Origin: Candidatus Edwardsbacteria bacterium
Lineage (GTDB): Bacteria; Edwardsbacteria; AC1; EtOH8
NCBI GenBank assembly: GCA_025453955.1
Contig: JALOPJ010000001.1
Coordinates: 12,515 to 76,514, forward strand
DNA length: 64,000 nt
Direction of reading: 5' to 3'
The position numbers were made by a program, and so were the translations under genes. The notes below the pieces were generated by a model, which was not told the origin of the DNA, searched no databases, and saw only the letters and a program-made list of their open reading frames with translations. This document shows positions 3,765-50,895 of this stretch, piece by piece (position 1 is the stretch's first letter; each line of letters begins with the position of its first letter).

Positions 3765-3851
3765 TGGTGCCGGGAGTGGGACTTGAACCCACATGGCTTG
3801 CGCCATACGCACCTCAAACGTACGTGTCTACCAAAATTCCACCATCCCGGC
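3765..3851 (-). tRNA. tRNA-Leu (anticodon GAG), type II with long variable arm; CCA is genomically encoded
   Basis: The reverse complement GCCGGGATGGTGGAATTTTGGTAGACACGTACGTTTGAGGTGCGTATGGCGCAAGCCATGTGGGTTCAAGTCCCACTCCCGGCACCA folds as follows. Acceptor GCCGGGA/TCCCGGC. D stem GTG/CAC with a long D loop. Anticodon stem TACGT/GCGTA with loop TTGAGGT, giving anticodon GAG and G37. Variable arm GGC-GCAA-GCC. T arm GTGGG-TTCAAGT-CCCAC. Discriminator A, then CCA. Confidence 0.85.
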
Positions 3852-5520: not shown

Positions 5521-6285
5521 TCAGCGCTTCTTGTCCCTGATCTCGATGCCGGCCAGCAGGACGTTGATGCCCTTCAGCATCAGCAGGGGGTCGCAGGTCC
5601 AGCCCTTGAGGTCCGGGGCGAACAGCGGGCCCAGGCCGCCGGTCAGCAGCAGGCGCGGCTTGGCCTGCAGTTCGCGGGCGATCCGCTCCGCCAGTTCCCG
5701 CACCATCCCCACCGTGCCCCAGTAGACGCCGGAGCGGACGCACTCGGCGGTGTCCCGGCCGGTGGCCAGCGGCGCCCGCTTCAGGACCACCTCCGGCAGC
5801 TGGGCGGTGCGCTCGGCCAGCGCCTTCAGCAGCAGGCCCGGGCCGGGGGCGATGGCCCCGCCCCGGAACACGCCGCGGGAGTCCACCGCGTCCCAGGTGA
5901 CGGCGGTGCCGATGTCCACCACCAGCGCCGGCCCGCCGTGCAGCTTCCAGGCGGCATAGGCGTTGACCAGCCGGTCGGCCCCCAGCTGCTCGGGCCGGCG
6001 GTAGCTGACCTTGAACCCCGGCAGCAGCCGGGAATGGATCACCAGCGGGTTGACGGCCAGCAGCTCCCGGATCACGCCGCTGGCGGTCTTGGTGAGATCG
6101 GGCACCACCGAGACGATGGCCGCCTTCTTGATGGAGCGGACGCCGATCACCTTCTCCAGGTAGCTGAAGAACCCCTCGTGGGTCAGGGTCCGGCTGTGCT
6201 CCAGCCGGGCCTGGCGGATCAGCTTGTCGCCCGAGAACACCGCCAGGGCGATCTTGGTGTTGCCGATGTCGAGGCACAGGTTCAT
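5521..6285 (-). CDS. coaX: Type III pantothenate kinase
   Basis: 254 aa from MNLCLDIGNTKIALAVF..., with the CoaX/Bvg-accessory-factor fold motifs DIGNT and VVDIGTAVTWD. The longer track ORF 5521..6732 is an upstream extension. Overlaps birA by 4 nt. Confidence 0.85.
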   Translation of the reverse strand: MNLCLDIGNTKIALAVFSGDKLIRQARLEHSRTLTHEGFFSYLEKVIGVRSIKKAAIVSVVPDLTKTASGVIRELLAVNPLVIHSRLLPGFKVSYRRPEQLGADRLVNAYAAWKLHGGPALVVDIGTAVTWDAVDSRGVFRGGAIAPGPGLLLKALAERTAQLPEVVLKRAPLATGRDTAECVRSGVYWGTVGMVRELAERIARELQAKPRLLLTGGLGPLFAPDLKGWTCDPLLMLKGINVLLAGIEIRDKKR

Positions 6286-7317: not shown

Positions 7318-8430
7318 TCAGGCCTTGGCCGGCGCCGGAGCCGGCGGCTCGCAGATCTCCCCTTCGCGCTTGAGCTCGGCGGCCCGCTTGATCTCGGCGC
7401 GGGTCATGAAGCCCACGGCGATGAAGATGAACACCAGCGCCAGCCAGTCTTCCGACTTGGGATACTTGCCCCCGAAGAACAGGGCGAAGACCAGGGTGGC
7501 CAGGGTGCCGGCCACGAGCGAGGTCAGCCGGTTGGCCAGCCCGGCAAACGTGGCGGTGCGGCCCTTGAACATGAAGATGAACACCGAGGAAAAGGCCACG
7601 ATGCCGAACACTCCGCCGGCCACCACCACCATCGGCCAGTGGATCGAGGCCGCAACATAGCCGCGGTGCAGCGCCTCCAGAATCTTGCCGGAGCCGGAGG
7701 GCAGGAGCATCAGGACCGCCAGGGCCAGCAGGATGGTGATCGATGCCGAGACCTGCTCCACCGCGAAGAAGGCTTTGTTGTCCTGCTTGCATCCCTTGCC
7801 CCTGGTGTTCTTGTAGTAGTTCATGATGTAGATCCGGATGAAATAGGCCAGCAGATAGCTGCACAGCACCAGCATTGCCAGCGTGTTTTTCAACAGGTCG
7901 CTCCCGCCCGCCTCCTTGACGAAGAACAGCTGGAGCCCGACCGCCGCGATGGCGAACAGCACCGCCACCTCCTCCTCCCAGAAGACCTTCTTGTGGAGGA
8001 TGCCCTGTTTGATCTGGATGGCATCGATGATCCGGGAGAAGATGATCACCGACCCCCGCATGATCAGCATGGCCACCATCACCGAGCGCAGCAGGACATA
8101 CAACAGGGTGGTAGTGGGGATGACCACGGCCGTGCAGATGCCCGAGGGGATGATGTACAGGTATTCGGCCGGGAAACGGAGCTTTCCCCAGGTGATCATG
8201 TTGGCGGACTCCATCCGCGCCCAGCGGAAAATGGATACCACCGCCATGCAGATCAGGCTGCCGCCCAATGTGCTGTAGACCAGAAATTCCCAGTTGTTGA
8301 CCCCGGGCAGGCCGCGCGACACCGGGCCGGTGTAGTATTTGGTGGCCACCGTGTAGATGGTATACGTGCCCAGGTAGGCCAGGCACAACTCGACCAACGC
8401 GGCGGTACTGCCCTCTTTTGACTTGAACAT
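7318..8430 (-). CDS. Integral membrane protein of unknown function (two-repeat, about 10 TM; DMT/EamA-like topology)
   Basis: 370-aa, strongly hydrophobic ORF with two internally similar 5-TM halves and a charged C-terminal tail (AEIKRAAELKREGEICEPPAPAPAKA). Its GC content is visibly lower than the flanking DNA. Confidence 0.55.
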   Translation of the reverse strand: MFKSKEGSTAALVELCLAYLGTYTIYTVATKYYTGPVSRGLPGVNNWEFLVYSTLGGSLICMAVVSIFRWARMESANMITWGKLRFPAEYLYIIPSGICTAVVIPTTTLLYVLLRSVMVAMLIMRGSVIIFSRIIDAIQIKQGILHKKVFWEEEVAVLFAIAAVGLQLFFVKEAGGSDLLKNTLAMLVLCSYLLAYFIRIYIMNYYKNTRGKGCKQDNKAFFAVEQVSASITILLALAVLMLLPSGSGKILEALHRGYVAASIHWPMVVVAGGVFGIVAFSSVFIFMFKGRTATFAGLANRLTSLVAGTLATLVFALFFGGKYPKSEDWLALVFIFIAVGFMTRAEIKRAAELKREGEICEPPAPAPAKA

Positions 8431-8492: not shown

Positions 8493-8564
8493 GTCATTCC
8501 GGCGAAGGCCGGAATCCAGCGACGAACGCTTATTTGGCTGGATTCCGATTTTCATCGGAATGAC
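8493..8564. repeat. Nested palindromic (REP/MITE-like) element overlapping the ispG stop codon
   Basis: gtcattccgg-cgaagg-ccggaatccag ... ctggattccg-attttcat-cggaatgac. The outer 9-bp and inner 10-bp inverted repeats can fold either as two adjacent hairpins or as one long hairpin. Confidence 0.5.
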
Positions 8565-9639
8565 GGTTCCCCAGTTCGCCGATCTCCCGCAGCAGGGCCG
8601 GGACCAGGTCCCGCTCCCGCACCGTCGCCACGACCTTCCCCTTGCGGATCACCGCGCCGCGGCCCTGACCGCCGCAGATGCCGACGTCGGCCTGCCGCGC
8701 CTCGCCCGGGCCGTTGACCGCGCAGCCCATCACGGCGATCCGCAGCGGCCGCGTCATGCCCCGGACCGCGGCCTCGACCCGGCGCGCGATCCGCTCGACG
8801 TCGATCTGGCAGCGGCCGCAGGTGGGGCAGGCGATCACGGTCGGCCCGAAGACGCGCAGGTCCAGCGACTGCAGGATCAGCCGGGCGGCGGCGATCTCCT
8901 TCACCGGGTCGCCGCACAGCGACACGCGGATGGTGTCCCCGATGCCCTCGGCCAGCAGCGCGCCGATCCCCACGGCCGAGCGCACCGCGCCGGCGAAGGC
9001 CGTCCCCGCCTCGGTGATGCCCAGGTGCAGCGGGTAGCGGCAGGCCCGCGCGGCCAGCCGGTAGGCGGCGATGGTCATCGGCACGTCCGAGCCCTTCAGC
9101 GACAGCACGATGTCCCCGAACCCGGCCCGCTCCAGCAGCCGCACGTGGCGCAGGGCGCTCTCCACCATGCCCGCCGCGGTGGGGTGCCCGTGCTTGCGCA
9201 GGATGTCGCGCTCCAGCGAGCCGGCGTTGACGCCGATGCGAATGGGAACGTTTCGTGCCTTTGCGGCCTTTACCACTTTCCACACATTTTCGGCCGGCCC
9301 GATGTTCCCGGGGTTGATCCGCAGCTTGTCGACGCCGGCGTCCAGCGCCGCCAGCGCCAGCCGGTGGTCGAAATGGATGTCGGCCACCAGCGGCAGGTCG
9401 GTGCGCCGGCGGATCCCGGCCAGCGCTGCTGCTGCGGCGGCGTCGGGCACGGCCAGCCGCACGATCTCGCAGCCGGCCTTGGCCAGGCGGCGGATCTGCG
9501 CCACGGTCGACCGGACGTCCCGGGTGTCGGTGTTGGTCATCGACTGGATGGCGACGGGCCGGCCGCCGCCGAGGGCCACGCCCCCGACCCGCACCATCCT
9601 GGTGCGCCGTCGCTCGATGCTGCCGTCTCGGTTCGTCAT
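8530..9639 (-). CDS. ispG: 4-hydroxy-3-methylbut-2-en-1-yl diphosphate synthase (IspG/GcpE)
   Basis: MTNRDGSIERRRTRMVRVGGVALGGGRPVAIQSMTNTDTRDV aligns with the E. coli IspG N-terminus. The C-terminal 4Fe-4S motif is present (CPTCGRC...GCAVNGPGE). The track ORF starts at a GTG at 9660; the ATG at 9639 is preferred. Confidence 0.9.
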   Translation of the reverse strand: MTNRDGSIERRRTRMVRVGGVALGGGRPVAIQSMTNTDTRDVRSTVAQIRRLAKAGCEIVRLAVPDAAAAAALAGIRRRTDLPLVADIHFDHRLALAALDAGVDKLRINPGNIGPAENVWKVVKAAKARNVPIRIGVNAGSLERDILRKHGHPTAAGMVESALRHVRLLERAGFGDIVLSLKGSDVPMTIAAYRLAARACRYPLHLGITEAGTAFAGAVRSAVGIGALLAEGIGDTIRVSLCGDPVKEIAAARLILQSLDLRVFGPTVIACPTCGRCQIDVERIARRVEAAVRGMTRPLRIAVMGCAVNGPGEARQADVGICGGQGRGAVIRKGKVVATVRERDLVPALLREIGELGNRHSDENRNPAK

Positions 9640-9741
9640 ATCGGTATTATAGAACTTCACCGAACGCTTTGCAATAGAAATATCGCCGGGATAACGGGTT
9701 GGACTATGCCGACAAAAATGGAAAAATCGTGCGGTCGCCCC

Positions 9742-9770
9742 TTGACAAACGACCGATTCGTGACTATAAT
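9742..9770 (+). promoter_or_regulatory. Perfect consensus sigma70 promoter
   Basis: TTGACA (9742-9747) - 17 nt - TATAAT (9765-9770), divergent from ispG. Confidence 0.7.
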
Positions 9771-9776
9771 GGCGAT

Positions 9777-10006
9777 GGAACGGTGGCTAGCTCCAATGTA
9801 CTACTGGTGTGACACTGGTCTACCCGGTAACCCGTGAATCAACCTAACGTTGGAGTGCGGTACCTTCCCCGGTACCCTGGAATCCGGTGACTTGGGACTC
9901 TGGAGACATGGAGCAACGGTATCCGGTACTCTGGACACCCCGGGACCCGGAGCTAGCCACCAGGTTCTTCACTGGGAAACCCCGATGAGCGATCATCGGG
10001 GTTTTT
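9777..10006 (+). ncRNA. Structured small RNA of about 230 nt (6S RNA-like candidate; alternative CsrB/RsmZ-like)
   Basis: Transcript predicted from the consensus promoter to an intrinsic terminator. ggtggctagctcc (9782-9794) is perfectly complementary to ggagctagccacc (9949-9961), closing an irregular helix of about 180 nt with an apical GGUACC hairpin (9858-9880). There are multiple CCGGTA and GGA motifs, and no plausible ORF. Confidence 0.6.
9980..10006 (+). terminator. Rho-independent terminator
   Basis: ccccgatga-gcga-tcatcgggg followed by ttttt. It may act bidirectionally for the convergent minus-strand gene. Confidence 0.7.
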
Positions 10007-10023
10007 CGTCGCCGGCCGCGCCG

Positions 10024-10446
10024 TCATTCCAGCTGCGGGTCCGGCAGGCGGATCCAGCGCAGGCATCCCCGGTAGCGTCGCGGGATGACATATCCCTCGA
10101 TCAAACGCACGTCGACGAATCCGCTGTCGGCGCTGCGGGCGACCGTCGCGATCGCCAGTCGTCCCCGGAACGATTCCCGGAACTGCCTGGCCGTCACCGA
10201 GACCCGGACGGTCATCTCCCCGTCCGCGCCGGTGTCCGCCCGGGCGACCCTGACGCGGTCGGCCGCCAGCAGCCGCAACACTCGTCCGCAGTGCGCGGTG
10301 TCGGTGCCGAGGTCGAGCATCAGGGAGTCAACCCCGGTGTTCGATATGCTGATCCCTGCCGCGCCCGTTGCCGGCGGTTCGGGCACCGGCAGGTCATCGC
10401 AGACCGCGCTGGTTACGAAAGCAGTCGCGGCGAACAGCACCATCAT
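10024..10446 (-). CDS. Hypothetical small secreted protein downstream of the subtilase
   Basis: MMVLFAATAFVTSAVCDDLPVPEPP... has a signal-peptide-like N-terminus (possible lipobox ending in Cys), runs 140 aa, shows a high-GC3 codon pattern, and starts 45 nt after the subtilase stop. I have no homology evidence. Confidence 0.35.
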   Translation of the reverse strand: MMVLFAATAFVTSAVCDDLPVPEPPATGAAGISISNTGVDSLMLDLGTDTAHCGRVLRLLAADRVRVARADTGADGEMTVRVSVTARQFRESFRGRLAIATVARSADSGFVDVRLIEGYVIPRRYRGCLRWIRLPDPQLE

Positions 10447-10490
10447 GCCTGCACATGAAACCGGCGGTCCCGCCCGCGACCGGTCGCCCG

Positions 10491-12236
10491 TCACCGCAGC
10501 AGCACCACCTTCGACGTGGCCGTCGCGCCTGCCGCCGCCAGCCGGCAGAGATAGACGCCGCCGGCCGCCCGGCGCCCCGCCCGGTCGAGGCCGTCCCAGC
10601 GGAGCGCGCCGCCGCCCGCCGGCAGGCGGACGCCGGGCAGCACGCGCACCAGCCGCCCGGCGACGTCGTAGATCGACACCGAGGCCTCGGCGGCGCGGGG
10701 CATCGCGCAGGCCAGTGTCACAGCGGAACGGGACGGGTTCGGCCAGCAGGACAACCGCAGCCCCGGGCTGATCGCGGCGCCGGGATGATTGTGGCCCACG
10801 CCGCTGCCGTCGTAGTGGATGGCGGCCCAGGCGTCGATGATCCCCCAGCCGTAGGTGGTGCTGTCGGGCGCCGCGCTGCGGTCGGCGGTCATCATCAGGG
10901 CCTCGCGCACTTGCAGCGCGGTCCACCCGGGATGGGCCTCCAGCACCAGGGCGCAGGCGCCCGCCACCAGCGGCGTGGCGCAGGAGGTGCCGGTGGCGTA
11001 ATGGGTGTAGTTGCTGGCGCCGGTCCAGCTGGCCCAGTAGATGTTGGTGCCCTGGGCGCAGACCTCGGGCTTGGGCCGCCCGTCGTAGGTCGGGCCGCGG
11101 GAACTGCCGGGATTGATCATCCCGAACGAGTCGACGTTGCCCACCGCAAGGATCGAGTCGGCGTCGGCCGGGGCGGACAGCGACCCGGCCGACGGGCCGC
11201 TGTTGCCCATGGCATTGCAGACGATGATGCCCAGCGCCGCGGCGTGGCGCGCCGCCAGCGACGAGATCGCGGTGCTGCCGTCCATGTCCGCGTAGGAATA
11301 GGACTGCTGGGAGGAGTCGAAGGTGAAATACCCCAGCGAGCTGGAGACGACGTCCGCGCCGACCGAGTCGGCCCGCTGCAGCGCGGCCGCCCAGTGGTCC
11401 TCTTCGACGTTGAGCTCGAAGCGGTTGTCCTCGGTGTGGTAGATCGCCCACAGGGCGCCGTACGCCGGGCCGATCAGCTGTCCCGGCACGTAGCCGCCGG
11501 CCTCTGACCAGGTGCCGGTGCCGTGCGAGGCCCACTCGACGGTGTCGGCGTTGGTGCAGAAATCCCATTCGTCGACCAGCCGCCCCGAGGCGAAGATCGA
11601 GTCGAACGCCTGGTGGTCCCTGCGGAAACCGTTGTCGAACATGGCGACCAGCACGCCGGCGCCGGAGTAGCCGGAGTCGTGGCAGATGACGGCATTGACC
11701 AGGCTGTCCTGGGTGAGCGACGGCCCGTAGTCCAGCAGGTGGGACTTGGGCGCCGGTGACCCGCCCCCGGGCGCGCTGGCCGCTGGCGGCTCGGGCCGGA
11801 TCGTCCGCCGCCGCGCCGGCAGCAGGTCGATCTTCATCACGAACGGGAGGTCCGCGGCGGCGGCGGCCTGCGCCGCGGTCATCTCGAAACTGGCGGCGTT
11901 GAACCAGTTCAGCCGCTGCCGCTGCCGCGCCCCGGTGGCCTCGATCTCCCGGACGTACTGCTCGCAGACCGGCAGGTCCTCGAAGGTCACCGCTGCCCCG
12001 CACTTGGCGCGGCGGGCCAGTGCCCGCTGGCTGAGCTGCAGCCGCCGGGCGTCCAGCGCGGCCCGGTCGGCGATGCCCTTGTCCCGGAAAAAGACCAGCA
12101 CCGGAACCGGCACCGCGGGAACGCTGTGTTCGAGCTGCGCTACCAGCCGCGGCGTGACGGTCGGCGGCACGACCGCGACCGCAGCCATCGTCGGCACGAG
12201 CATCCCGGCGATAGTAATCCAATAAAGCTGTCTCAT
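10491..12236 (-). CDS. Secreted subtilisin-like serine protease (S8) with C-terminal T9SS/FlgD-Ig-like sorting domain
   Basis: Signal peptide MRQLYWITIAGMLVPTMAAVAVV. Catalytic triad context: D in AMFDNGF, H in HGTGT, S in GTSCATP. The C-terminus CWPNPSRSAVTL...VSIYDVAGRLVRVL...WDGLDRAGRRAAGGVYLCRL...SKVVLLR matches the por-secretion CTD pattern. Confidence 0.85.
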   Translation of the reverse strand: MRQLYWITIAGMLVPTMAAVAVVPPTVTPRLVAQLEHSVPAVPVPVLVFFRDKGIADRAALDARRLQLSQRALARRAKCGAAVTFEDLPVCEQYVREIEATGARQRQRLNWFNAASFEMTAAQAAAAADLPFVMKIDLLPARRRTIRPEPPAASAPGGGSPAPKSHLLDYGPSLTQDSLVNAVICHDSGYSGAGVLVAMFDNGFRRDHQAFDSIFASGRLVDEWDFCTNADTVEWASHGTGTWSEAGGYVPGQLIGPAYGALWAIYHTEDNRFELNVEEDHWAAALQRADSVGADVVSSSLGYFTFDSSQQSYSYADMDGSTAISSLAARHAAALGIIVCNAMGNSGPSAGSLSAPADADSILAVGNVDSFGMINPGSSRGPTYDGRPKPEVCAQGTNIYWASWTGASNYTHYATGTSCATPLVAGACALVLEAHPGWTALQVREALMMTADRSAAPDSTTYGWGIIDAWAAIHYDGSGVGHNHPGAAISPGLRLSCWPNPSRSAVTLACAMPRAAEASVSIYDVAGRLVRVLPGVRLPAGGGALRWDGLDRAGRRAAGGVYLCRLAAAGATATSKVVLLR

Positions 12237-12310
12237 GGATCACCTCCTCTACGGCATGAGTGTACCGCCGTCGCACCCGAAAGTCAAGCGGTCATCGCGG
12301 TCGGGGATGC

Positions 12311-49787: not shown

Positions 49788-50895
49788 ATGCCTGTCGCAG
49801 CAGGTCAGCCACCTGCTCCCCGATCGCCAGGCTGGCCGTCAGACCGGGCGACTCGATCCCCAGCAGGTCGACGAATCCCGGGAACCCGCGGCCGGCCTCT
49901 TCCCGGATGACGAAGTCCCGGACCTCGTCATCGCCCGGGCCCTGCAGCTTGGGCCGGACCCCGGCCTGGTCCGGCGCCAGCCGGGCGGCGTCGATGGCGG
50001 GGAACAGCCGCCGCGCGGCGGCCTGGAACGCCGCCAGCTTGCGTTCGTCCACCGTGAAGTCGTCGGTCGACGACACGTACTCCACGTCCGGCCCGAACCG
50101 CAGCCGGCCGGCCAGGTCGATGGTGGCGTGCACGCCCAGGCCGGTCAATCCCTTCTCCGGGATCGGGTAGACCAGGTGCGTCACCCGGTGCGTTCCCGCA
50201 TAGGCGAAGTACGATCCCTTGCAGGGGTGCATGGCCTCCGGCTCCAGCCCCGGCATCCGGGCGACGGCCGGCGCGCCCAAGCCGCCGGCGTTGACCACGG
50301 TCGCCGATCCGAACTCCTCGCCGGAGCGCAGCCGCAGCCGGTACCCGGCGCCAGCCCGGTCCAGTGCCACCACCTCGGACTCGTAGGAAACGGTTCCGTT
50401 GTCCGCTGCGATGTCGGACTCCAGCGCCTTCATGTAGGAATGGGTGTCGAAGATGCCGGTCTCGGCCAGGAACAGCGCCGCGCTGGCCCGCACCTCCGGT
50501 TCCAGCGCCGCCGCCTGTCCGCCGGTCAGGCGCTCGACGTTCTCGATCCCGTTGCGGAGGCCTTTCTGATAGAGCGCCTCCAGCTCCGGTTCCTCGACAG
50601 CGTCGGCGGCCACCACCAGCTTGCCGCACTTCTTGAACGGGACGCCCCTGGCCTCGCAGTATTGGTACAGGGCGCGCCGCCCCCCGACGCACAGCCGGTG
50701 CTTGAGGCTGCCGGTGGGGTAGTACAGGCCGGAATGGACCACCTCGCTGTTGCGGCTGGAGATCCCCGTCCCGAACGACTTGCCCTGCTCGACCACCAGC
50801 ACGTCGTTCTCGCCGTGAAAGCGCGCTGCCAGCGCGCGGGCCACGGCCAAGCCGACCGCGCCCGCGCCGATCACCGTACAGCGGAACGACAGCAC
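49786..50895 (-). CDS. FAD-dependent oxidoreductase (L-2-hydroxyglutarate oxidase/LhgO-like)
   Basis: N-terminal dinucleotide-binding motif (VIGAGAVGLAVARALA) in the DAO family. Confidence 0.75.
   Translation of the reverse strand: MLSFRCTVIGAGAVGLAVARALAARFHGENDVLVVEQGKSFGTGISSRNSEVVHSGLYYPTGSLKHRLCVGGRRALYQYCEARGVPFKKCGKLVVAADAVEEPELEALYQKGLRNGIENVERLTGGQAAALEPEVRASAALFLAETGIFDTHSYMKALESDIAADNGTVSYESEVVALDRAGAGYRLRLRSGEEFGSATVVNAGGLGAPAVARMPGLEPEAMHPCKGSYFAYAGTHRVTHLVYPIPEKGLTGLGVHATIDLAGRLRFGPDVEYVSSTDDFTVDERKLAAFQAAARRLFPAIDAARLAPDQAGVRPKLQGPGDDEVRDFVIREEAGRGFPGFVDLLGIESPGLTASLAIGEQVADLLRQA

Follow-up and report, generated by a model that had tools for sequence, protein, structure and literature searches.

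The stretch of DNA analyzed here, which we call the window, is 64,000 nucleotides (nt) from a Candidatus Edwardsbacteria bacterium (contig JALOPJ010000001.1). At positions 9742–10006 of its plus strand lies what is, with high confidence, a stand-alone gene for a structured noncoding RNA (ncRNA), bounded by a promoter and a terminator (Table 1). The RNA is about 190–230 nt long and matches no known RNA family. An initial annotation, made from the letters of the window, placed it between ispG and a subtilase gene, but its 3' neighbor is an open reading frame (ORF) for 141 amino acids (aa), and the subtilase gene lies only behind that ORF. All three neighbors are on the minus strand. The description of the RNA as the only plus-strand gene agrees with our data: minus-strand ORFs with coding-type G+C content at the three codon positions (GC1>GC2<<GC3) tile the window, every ORF of this type is on the minus strand, and those that can be drawn on the plus strand are shadow frames. 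Transcription of the RNA gene is therefore head-on to that of all its surroundings. Its locus has a G+C content of 51–58%, compared with 70–78% in the flanks.

Table 1. Coordinates in the window of the parts of the RNA gene and of the adjacent genes.
Feature	Position	Strand	Description
A-tracts, UP-element-like	9714-9729	+	Two A-tracts, CAAAAATGGAAAAATC; 13-28 nt upstream of the -35 box
Promoter, sigma-70 type	9742-9770	+	TTGACA (9742-9747), 17 nt, TATAAT (9765-9770); 12 of 12 consensus positions
P1 closing stem, 5' arm	9782-9794	+	GGUGGCUAGCUCC; 13-nt perfect inverted repeat
P2 domain	9792-9854	+	Base helix UCCAAUGU/ACGUUGGA (9792-9799 with 9847-9854); inverted repeat; minimum-energy and clade-A consensus folds
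Octamer array	9803-9948	+	Degenerate tandem repeat, unit C-Y-G-G-W-R-A/C-C; 15 GG units; 11 of 14 GG-to-GG spacings are 7-9 nt
Non-repeat island	9823-9855	+	CCCGGUAACCCGU, C/A-rich GAAUCAACCUAAC, GUUGGAG; conserved; C/A-rich stretch largely unpaired in the predicted fold
P3 hairpin	9859-9876	+	GGUACC-UUCCCC-GGUACC; arms 9859-9864 and 9871-9876
P4 hairpin	9883-9951	+	Long and imperfect, UCCGG...CCGGA; octamer units pairing together; minimum-energy and clade-A consensus folds
P1 closing stem, 3' arm	9949-9961	+	GGAGCUAGCCACC; pairs with 9782-9794, 100% complementary
Linker between P1 and terminator	9962-9976	+	GGUUC (9964-9968) can pair with GGAAC (9777-9781), extending P1; full-transcript minimum-energy fold and 3-sequence consensus
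Intrinsic terminator	9977-10006	+	AAACCCCGAUGA-GCGA-UCAUCGGGGUUU (9977-10004), then U run to 10006; textbook hairpin and U-tract
ispG	8530-9639	-	GcpE match, E = 2e-147
141-aa ORF	10024-10449	-	Signal peptide; no Pfam match; adjoins the 3' end of the RNA gene, convergent
Subtilase gene	10491-12236	-	Peptidase_S8, FlgD_ig; behind the 141-aa ORF

A conserved promoter and terminator delimit the gene

The promoter that the initial annotation had read as TTGACA-17-TATAAT matches the consensus at every hexamer position, and an identical TTGACA-N17-TATAAT is found in all eight of the homologs (described below) whose 5' flank is present. Two promoter-like sites were observed in the region, compared with 0.2 expected. 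Transcription would start at about 9776–9778, after a G+C-rich discriminator (GGCG) and about 5 nt before the closing stem P1. Further upstream, the columns of the two A-tracts and of the TCG that follows them are invariant in an alignment of five sequences, and an A/T-rich tract is located at the same place in the homologs L096, L118, L119 and L120; a role for such tracts as UP elements is suggested by analogy with the rrn promoters of Escherichia coli.

The intrinsic terminator, which had been called canonical, is likewise real, with both a hairpin and a U run. It was missed by our automatic scan for terminators, probably since some of the U run is taken up by the stem. Its A/U flanks make it a weaker terminator for the opposite strand too, serving the convergent 141-aa ORF. 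With promoter and terminator conserved and no conserved ORF between them, the locus has the form of a generic sigma-70-promoted, intrinsically terminated small RNA (sRNA) gene.

The stem of the terminator (CCCCGAUGA/UCAUCGGGG, positions 9980–10001) is invariant in all 10 copies of the RNA, including those found independently through IspG, and its loop varies among them (GCGA, GAAA, ACGG, GGUC, GUGA or GCUU). Drift or covariation is what one would expect of a terminator, which makes the conservation of the stem at the sequence level surprising. The same hairpin also occurs by chance, as a terminator, in about 25 unrelated metagenomic loci.

Homologs are confined to a subclade of Candidatus Edwardsbacteria

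We searched for homologs in two ways, through synteny with ispG and by scanning metagenomes with the terminator stem as a pattern. Nine full copies and one partial copy were found, all of them in metagenomic contigs. They comprise clade A, within which the window is counted (the window, L081, L082 (= L083) and L090, with L084 as a divergent member), and clade B (L096, L118, L119 and L120). The IspG protein of the window, for which an exact look-up returned no record, is 100% identical to an NCBI protein from a metagenome-assembled genome of Candidatus Edwardsbacteria. Contigs whose IspG proteins are 79–89% identical in pairwise comparisons (L081, L082 = L083 and L084) keep the local gene order and carry a homologous RNA on the strand opposite ispG, with the same promoter, closing stem and terminator. 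From the terminator-pattern scan, 3 of 28 loci carry the RNA (L090, L096 and the truncated L117), the others being unrelated terminators, and three more copies (L118, L119 and L120) lie beside IspG genes of approximately 71–72% protein identity. Every copy with a visible upstream flank, L096 included, is situated divergently upstream of ispG. An nhmmer profile made from either clade detects the other clade (E-values from 2e-5 to 5e-3 in 1.2 Mb), and the profiles have no match in 110 other loci, 80 of which are ispG loci of other phyla.

The family does not extend to all relatives. In L087, another Edwardsbacteria genome (67% IspG identity), the gap of 244 nt between rpsA and ispG does not contain the RNA, and the more distant IspG loci L086, L088 and L089 have a different synteny with no room for it; L085 has too little upstream sequence to be informative, and L121 ends 157 nt upstream of ispG. 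A scan of contigs representing one genome per species yielded only IspG proteins at 50–61% identity, from Bacillota and other phyla, where the RNA is absent. BLASTN searches against plasmid and phage collections found nothing. Pattern scans of viral contigs gave seven matches, all attributable to chance, none having the octamer repeat described below or a profile match. Searches with Rfam 15, at gathering thresholds over the window and permissively on the locus and seven homologous loci, returned only tRNAs and chance matches confined to the terminator. Searches of the literature for Edwardsbacteria RNAs or for similar repeat RNAs found nothing relevant; to our knowledge, no member of Candidatus Edwardsbacteria has been cultured, and no regulatory RNA has been described from the phylum.

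The RNA founds a previously undescribed, lineage-restricted family that is confined to a subclade of Candidatus Edwardsbacteria. It is of a familiar general kind, the stand-alone structured bacterial RNA gene, and the family itself is new. Comparative genomics has discovered other orphan structured ncRNA motifs, such as raiA, Chlorobi-1, Bacteroidales-1, OLE and ROOL. The Edwardsbacteria RNA resembles them in its restriction to a lineage, its conserved promoter and terminator, its support from covariation and in having no known function at its discovery, but it matches none of them, nor any other Rfam 15 family. Its ten natural variants (nine of them full-length), clear boundaries and covariation-supported core make it traceable in metatranscriptomes and possible to synthesize for biochemistry.

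The RNA is under purifying selection and does not encode a protein

Within clades, copies of the RNA have identities of 0.90–0.93, compared with 0.63–0.79 at four-fold degenerate sites of ispG. The RNA is therefore under purifying selection. The window and the divergent L084 share only 65% identity in the RNA, compared with 79% for their IspG proteins, and the differences between the window and L090 include an insertion of 8 nt; both comparisons illustrate how easily the arms change.

No ORF is conserved, in keeping with the earlier view that none is plausible. We considered a plus-strand ORF (9850–10458), two minus-strand ORFs (9844–9996 and 9801–9938) and short ORFs at the 5' end, and rejected all of them because their frames, lengths and strands differ among homologs and 1-nt indels intervene; one such indel, between the window and L081, falls inside every candidate.

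A covarying closing stem encloses a branched fold

The 232-nt transcript has a predicted folding energy of −102.5 kcal/mol (z = −4.24 relative to dinucleotide shuffles), and none of 200 shuffled sequences folds as well. Its ends are held together by P1, whose arms are 13 nt long and fully complementary, just as the initial annotation had them, and which enclose a core of 166–203 nt across the copies. In the minimum-energy fold P1 consists of 10 pairs (9782–9791 with 9952–9961), the remaining UCC opening P2, and the full-length fold extends it to about 18 base pairs (bp). P1 is 100% paired in five distinct sequence variants, compared with 18–51% when the partner is slid by 1–3 columns, and 4 of its 13 pairs show double compensatory changes (G-C/A-U, U-A/C-G, C-G/U-A and U-A/C-G). 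L084 has a further variant of P1, with one bulge. The initial annotation had made its reading depend on a conserved secondary structure in homologous loci; the RNA is conserved in relatives, and its closing stem covaries.

Inside P1, the minimum-energy fold of the window and the clade-A consensus agree on a four-way junction of P1, P2, P3 and P4. The P2 domain encloses a small hairpin (approximately 9802–9829) and the non-repeat island. P3 is the apical GGUACC hairpin of the initial annotation, with its coordinates corrected (Table 1) and a UUCCCC loop, and is specific to clade A. In P4 the variation consists mainly of one-sided changes that keep pairs, although L082 has one broken pair and L090 a few; the arm is otherwise nearly invariant among the window, L081 and L082.

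The clade-B consensus has no separate P3 and is a three-way junction with almost no unpaired junction residues, made of a 10-bp P1, a P2 hairpin of about 70 nt and a second hairpin of about 100 nt. This branched fold is 99.6% paired over the four clade-B sequences, compared with 22–51% in slid controls, although it is derived from the same sequences on which it is scored. The P2 of clade B contains one double compensatory pair (G-C to A-U) and two pairs that run through the series C-G (L096), U.G (L119 and L120) and U-A (L118); the change in L118 turns a GG into AA while the pairs stay. The clade-B island reads CCCGGUAACCCGUAC(A/U)AACC..ACAGAUCGGAGG and forms a 15-nt apical loop on the second long hairpin.

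Both clades share the junction design P1-[UCC...GGA]-...-[UCC...GGA]-P1', and as a result the 13-bp form of P1 (GCUCC/GGAGC) and the basal pairs of the first and last arms are in competition. The best-supported fold is thus a three- or four-way junction, and not the single long irregular hairpin of about 180 nt that had been proposed.

The arms are built from a palindromic octamer

Cutting each RNA interior before every GG reveals that the arms are composed of a degenerate unit of eight nucleotides, for example CCGGUAAC, CUGGUGAC, CUGGAAAC and CCGGUACC. Each RNA has 13–19 GG units, and 8–12 of the spacings between them are 7–9 nt, whereas 1000 dinucleotide shuffles contain a mean of 1.3–1.7 such spacings and a maximum of 5–7 (mean 1.7 and maximum 6 for the array in the window). 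The cluster is unique within the window. A repeated CCGGUA had been noted before; the repeat is real, with three counted occurrences of CCGGTA, but it belongs to this stronger palindromic periodicity of 8 nt, which had been missed.

As RNA, the octamer is self-complementary: CYGG pairs with CYGG through G.U, and GGU-N-ACC is palindromic. The units therefore pair together, in helices of 3–6 bp separated by loops of 1x1 to 3x3, a pattern that is visible in the predicted folds as "(((.(((.(((". The arms are accordingly modeled as rods with a mismatch or small internal loop every 4–8 nt. Because any unit can pair with any other, a single rod is nearly as stable as the branched fold, and the arms are easily remodeled. 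Lineages differ in how their arms are arranged but agree in the promoter, in P1 and the junction, in the island (CCCGGUAACCCGU-(C/A-rich)-GGAG) and in the terminator stem. Arms built of a periodic palindromic octamer around a covarying junction are an unusual construction, and we know of no other orphan RNA motif with arms of this type.

A parallel for the repeats is E. coli naRNA4, an HU-binding RNA derived from repetitive extragenic palindromic (REP) elements, whose tandem palindromic units form several hairpins or cruciform-like arms and whose partner has been proposed to recognize distorted duplexes or junctions. The Edwardsbacteria RNA is likewise a transcript of tandem palindromic units folding into several arms. 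They differ in that REP units are about 35 nt long, are dispersed in hundreds of genomic copies and have no dedicated gene with promoter and terminator, whereas the unit here is 8 nt, the locus occurs only once in the window, and the array is enclosed by a closing stem that covaries.

Possible functions of the RNA

Our preferred reading, which we hold tentatively and with somewhat less than even confidence, is that the RNA acts in trans as a ribonucleoprotein scaffold or decoy. It is probably very abundant and stable, because its promoter is strong and its 5' end is sequestered in P1. Its 5' and 3' ends are locked by the covarying 10–13-bp P1, which opens into the conserved junction, and from there two or three arms made of mutually pairing octamers are predicted to radiate. 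Such regularly interrupted arms could offer many equivalent sites to a protein that recognizes structured or duplex nucleic acid, imperfect duplexes or junctions. The partner would be neither a reader of single-stranded GGA like CsrA nor RNA polymerase engaged through an open-promoter bubble. We favor a scaffold or decoy because the arms conserve interrupted pairing rather than exposed single-stranded motifs, and because they vary in number and order. If there is a partner protein, the RNA would be a new example of multivalent control of a protein by RNA through structured and not single-stranded motifs.

Several points weigh against this interpretation. Because the units are self-complementary, alternative folds, the single-hairpin rod among them, are only 2–19% less stable than the branched fold (energy ratio 0.81–0.98). 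The covariation comes from few sequences (five variants of P1 and four of clade B), and most of it falls in P1 and P2; the longest arm hardly varies, which leaves its pairing unproven, and the sequences used to score the clade-B structure are those that yielded it. No candidate for the partner protein was found: only ispG is constantly linked to the RNA, nothing ties IspG to RNA binding, and the linkage is probably inherited synteny. A scaffold or decoy is also a default role for structured RNAs that have no seed, and the proposed abundance and stability are read from the sequence.

A bolder version of the scaffold or decoy, which is possible but in our view doubtful, is that the RNA is the founding member of a new class: a multivalent mimic of duplex nucleic acid whose arms toggle between branched and rod forms. 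Transcribed from a promoter like those of rRNA, it would titrate a DNA-binding, double-stranded-RNA-binding or junction-binding protein, or else RNA polymerase in a bubble-independent manner.

The identification offered initially was a 6S-like RNA. Canonical 6S RNAs are rod-shaped, 160–200 nt long, and have an enlarged central loop flanked by helical arms (PMC8414754). A divergent RNA of this type would bind the housekeeping RNA polymerase holoenzyme as a mimic of an open promoter, and be released by synthesis of a product RNA. The core length of the Edwardsbacteria RNA falls in the 6S range just cited, its ends form a covarying closing stem, and its strong promoter is of the housekeeping type. 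The rod is energetically near the minimum-energy fold (the energy ratio given above), and the 6S RNAs of poorly sampled phyla may escape covariance models, non-canonical candidates being mentioned in the same paper (PMC8414754). However, the Rfam 6S models (RF00013 and relatives) find nothing in the window when gathering thresholds are applied, nothing in the 401 nt from 9640 to 10040 at E ≤ 10, and nothing in seven homologous loci at E ≤ 5. The internal bubble that had been taken to fit 6S is also missing, since a central bubble of about 15 nt appears neither in the minimum-energy fold nor in the best forced single hairpin; the latter has no bubble of at least 10 nt, and the largest unpaired stretch in the rod of the window is about 6 nt. 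In a control with a manually entered sequence of E. coli 6S RNA, the rod was the minimum-energy fold and the bubble was present.

Comparison of the clades points the same way. In clade B the rod has 92.5% paired cells, compared with 99.6% for the branched fold; it leaves 19 cells unpaired and has no covariation outside P1, and the compensatory changes speak for a local hairpin within the 5' half, which a rod could not accommodate. The number and order of arms differ between clades, unlike those of 6S. The regularly interrupted helices do recall the bulged arms of 6S RNA, and the two have in common a stand-alone gene with a housekeeping-type promoter, a core of about 170–200 nt, paired ends, many small helix loops and probable abundance. 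But the RNA differs from 6S (SsrS; RF00013, and 6S-Flavo, RF01685) in its branching, in the absence of a covariance match, of a large bubble and of a recognizable template site for product RNA, and in its arms of 8-nt repeats, rearranged between lineages. We therefore consider a 6S-type RNA unlikely; if the RNA did prove to be the 6S equivalent of this phylum, it would extend the structural range of RNA polymerase decoys.

About equally unlikely is a trans-acting base-pairing sRNA, with the C/A-rich loop as its seed (GAAUCAACCUAAC in the window; in clade B, ACAACC(C)ACAGA) and the rest as a stabilizing scaffold. The island is the only extended non-repeat element common to both clades and is predicted to be largely unpaired, forming the apical loop in clade B. 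Against this, the loop sequence differs between the clades, 190 nt of conserved structure far exceeds what a scaffold for a seed needs, and the loop has no complementary match of at least 10 nt to any transcript of the window, with fewer 8-mer matches than expected by chance.

We give slightly less credence to a stable RNA that belongs to the machinery of translation or ribosome biogenesis, is regulated together with rRNA and is released by processing at a stem flanked by leader and trailer. The promoter is like that of rRNA in its consensus hexamers, A-tracts and G+C-rich discriminator, and the window contains rpsA, a gene for RNase E/G and a tRNA gene in the vicinity. All four clade-B leaders have an element resembling boxA, G[CUA]UCUUU[AU] (for example GGCUCUUUAGAUAA in L118), 10–20 nt before P1. 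These resemblances to rrn promoters and to boxA are a lead and not a test. A family confined to one subclade, and absent from the same site in L087, would be unusual for a core component; moreover clade A has neither leader nor boxA, and the RNA shows no similarity to models of 5S rRNA, signal recognition particle (SRP) RNA, transfer-messenger RNA (tmRNA) or RNase P RNA.

The clade-B leaders with the boxA-like element are at L096:325–350 on the plus strand and at L118:3785–3815, L119:3700–3730 and L120:1830–1860 on the minus strand. In clade B there is also a U-tract, directly after P1 in L118, L119 and L120 (GCCGUCUUUUUCUUU) and after one intervening A in L096 (CCACCAUUUUUGUUU). Together with the boxA-like element it hints at antitermination by Nus factors and at a second, P1-dependent point of termination or processing.

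The initial annotation had left room for a CsrB/RsmZ-like sponge, on the strength of the repeated CCGGUA and seven GGA motifs. GGA motifs are indeed present, although the count is nine in 9777–9965. Under this explanation the RNA would titrate CsrA, or another protein that reads single-stranded GG, through GG(A/U) motifs. It shares with CsrB, CsrC and RsmX/Y/Z a gene with its own promoter and terminator and many short GG-containing motifs, regularly spaced here; in Csr/Rsm sponges, too, the copy number and order of repeats vary between lineages. There are 5–10 GGA per RNA, which is approximately 2 standard deviations (sd) above shuffles in most clade-A copies and approximately 3 sd in L084, but only about 1.6 sd in L118 and L119, and there is no enrichment in L096 or L120. 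GGU is about as frequent in the unit as GGA. Nearly all of the GG dinucleotides (15–20 of 17–22 per RNA) are base-paired in the predicted folds, leaving 0–1 GGA per RNA in a hairpin loop and 0–2 with two or more unpaired nucleotides, whereas the known sponges present A(N)GGA in hairpin loops and lack the strict 8-nt spacing. Where one GG unit was replaced by AA together with a compensating partner, it is the pairing and not the motif that was kept. Covariance models of CsrB, CsrC and Rsm RNAs have no match in the window, at the locus (E ≤ 10) or in the seven homologous loci (E ≤ 5). No csrA-like small ORF was found in the window, which says little about the genome as a whole, and we know of no report of CsrA in the Edwardsbacteria phylum. 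A sponge of this type is improbable, and with it goes the second of two tempting mis-annotations, as 6S or as CsrB.

It is very improbable that there is no function at the RNA level and that the locus is a small-protein gene, a cluster of DNA-level repeats or binding sites, or transcriptional noise, its promoter serving ispG by way of supercoiling. It is true that a number of short ORFs can be drawn and that the RNA promoter and the divergent ispG promoter are only about 70 bp apart, but the ORFs differ in frame, strand and length and are broken by the 1-nt indel relative to L081, a period of 8 nt is incompatible with coding, the compensatory changes seen in P1 and in P2 are a mark of function as RNA, and the whole transcribed segment, not the promoter alone, is more conserved than synonymous sites.

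We also rejected some more specific candidates. No model of SRP RNA, 5S rRNA, tmRNA, RNase P RNA or Y RNA matched, and ARAGORN found no tmRNA. For a retron or another RNA linked to a reverse transcriptase, there is indeed an inverted repeat, but transcription stops at the terminator and no same-strand gene follows. For a replication origin, gene orientation does not switch.

Leaders and neighboring genes

Two clade-A homologs have an extra 5' leader that is absent from the window (L084:3690–3745, minus strand, and L090:25–92, plus strand), with a shared segment CAACATCTATTAACTCT.GACGGAGGTAATGATG. The leader contains a Shine-Dalgarno sequence (GGAGG), 5 nt and then an ATG, which opens an ORF of 15–16 codons, MMLRTKKQIFPIDGG in L084 and MMRQLKKIIFHPWCGG in L090, each followed by a stop codon. 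The stop codon lies inside the 5' arm of P1, so translation of this ORF would compete with formation of P1.

The strand bias is extreme over the whole window (1–64000), and the head-on arrangement is kept at the ispG side in all relatives. ARAGORN calls of tRNA-Ser(GGA) at 49986–50066 (plus strand) and tRNA-Pro(GGG) at 5845–5929 (minus strand) sit inside long coding ORFs and are probably false positives, the Rfam tRNA model supporting only tRNA-Leu(GAG) at 3765–3851 (minus strand).

The gene ispG has a promoter-like site of its own at 9637–9674 on the minus strand (TTGCAA-17-TATAAT, 10 of 12 consensus positions), which ends 6 nt before the ATG at 9639 and suggests that the ispG mRNA is leaderless. 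The distance from TATAAT to ATG is 0–6 nt in relatives, which casts doubt on one or the other, the start codon or the assignment of the promoter. Directly downstream of ispG is a gene for a conserved protein of 366–371 aa (7318–8430 on the minus strand of the window, L081:3669–4769, L082:6132–7247 and L085:1343–2443), to which no Pfam family is assigned, either in the window or by the precomputed annotations that accompany the relatives.

On the other side, a 750-aa ORF (10024–12276) that seems to abut the RNA gene has no Pfam match and is a frame artifact. The protein encoded by the 141-aa ORF is conserved, at 134–143 aa; it begins with a signal peptide, its C-terminus is invariably RWIRLPDPQ(L/I)E, and it belongs to no Pfam family. 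In clade-A loci its gene always follows that of the S8 subtilase, for which it could be a cognate inhibitor or chaperone.

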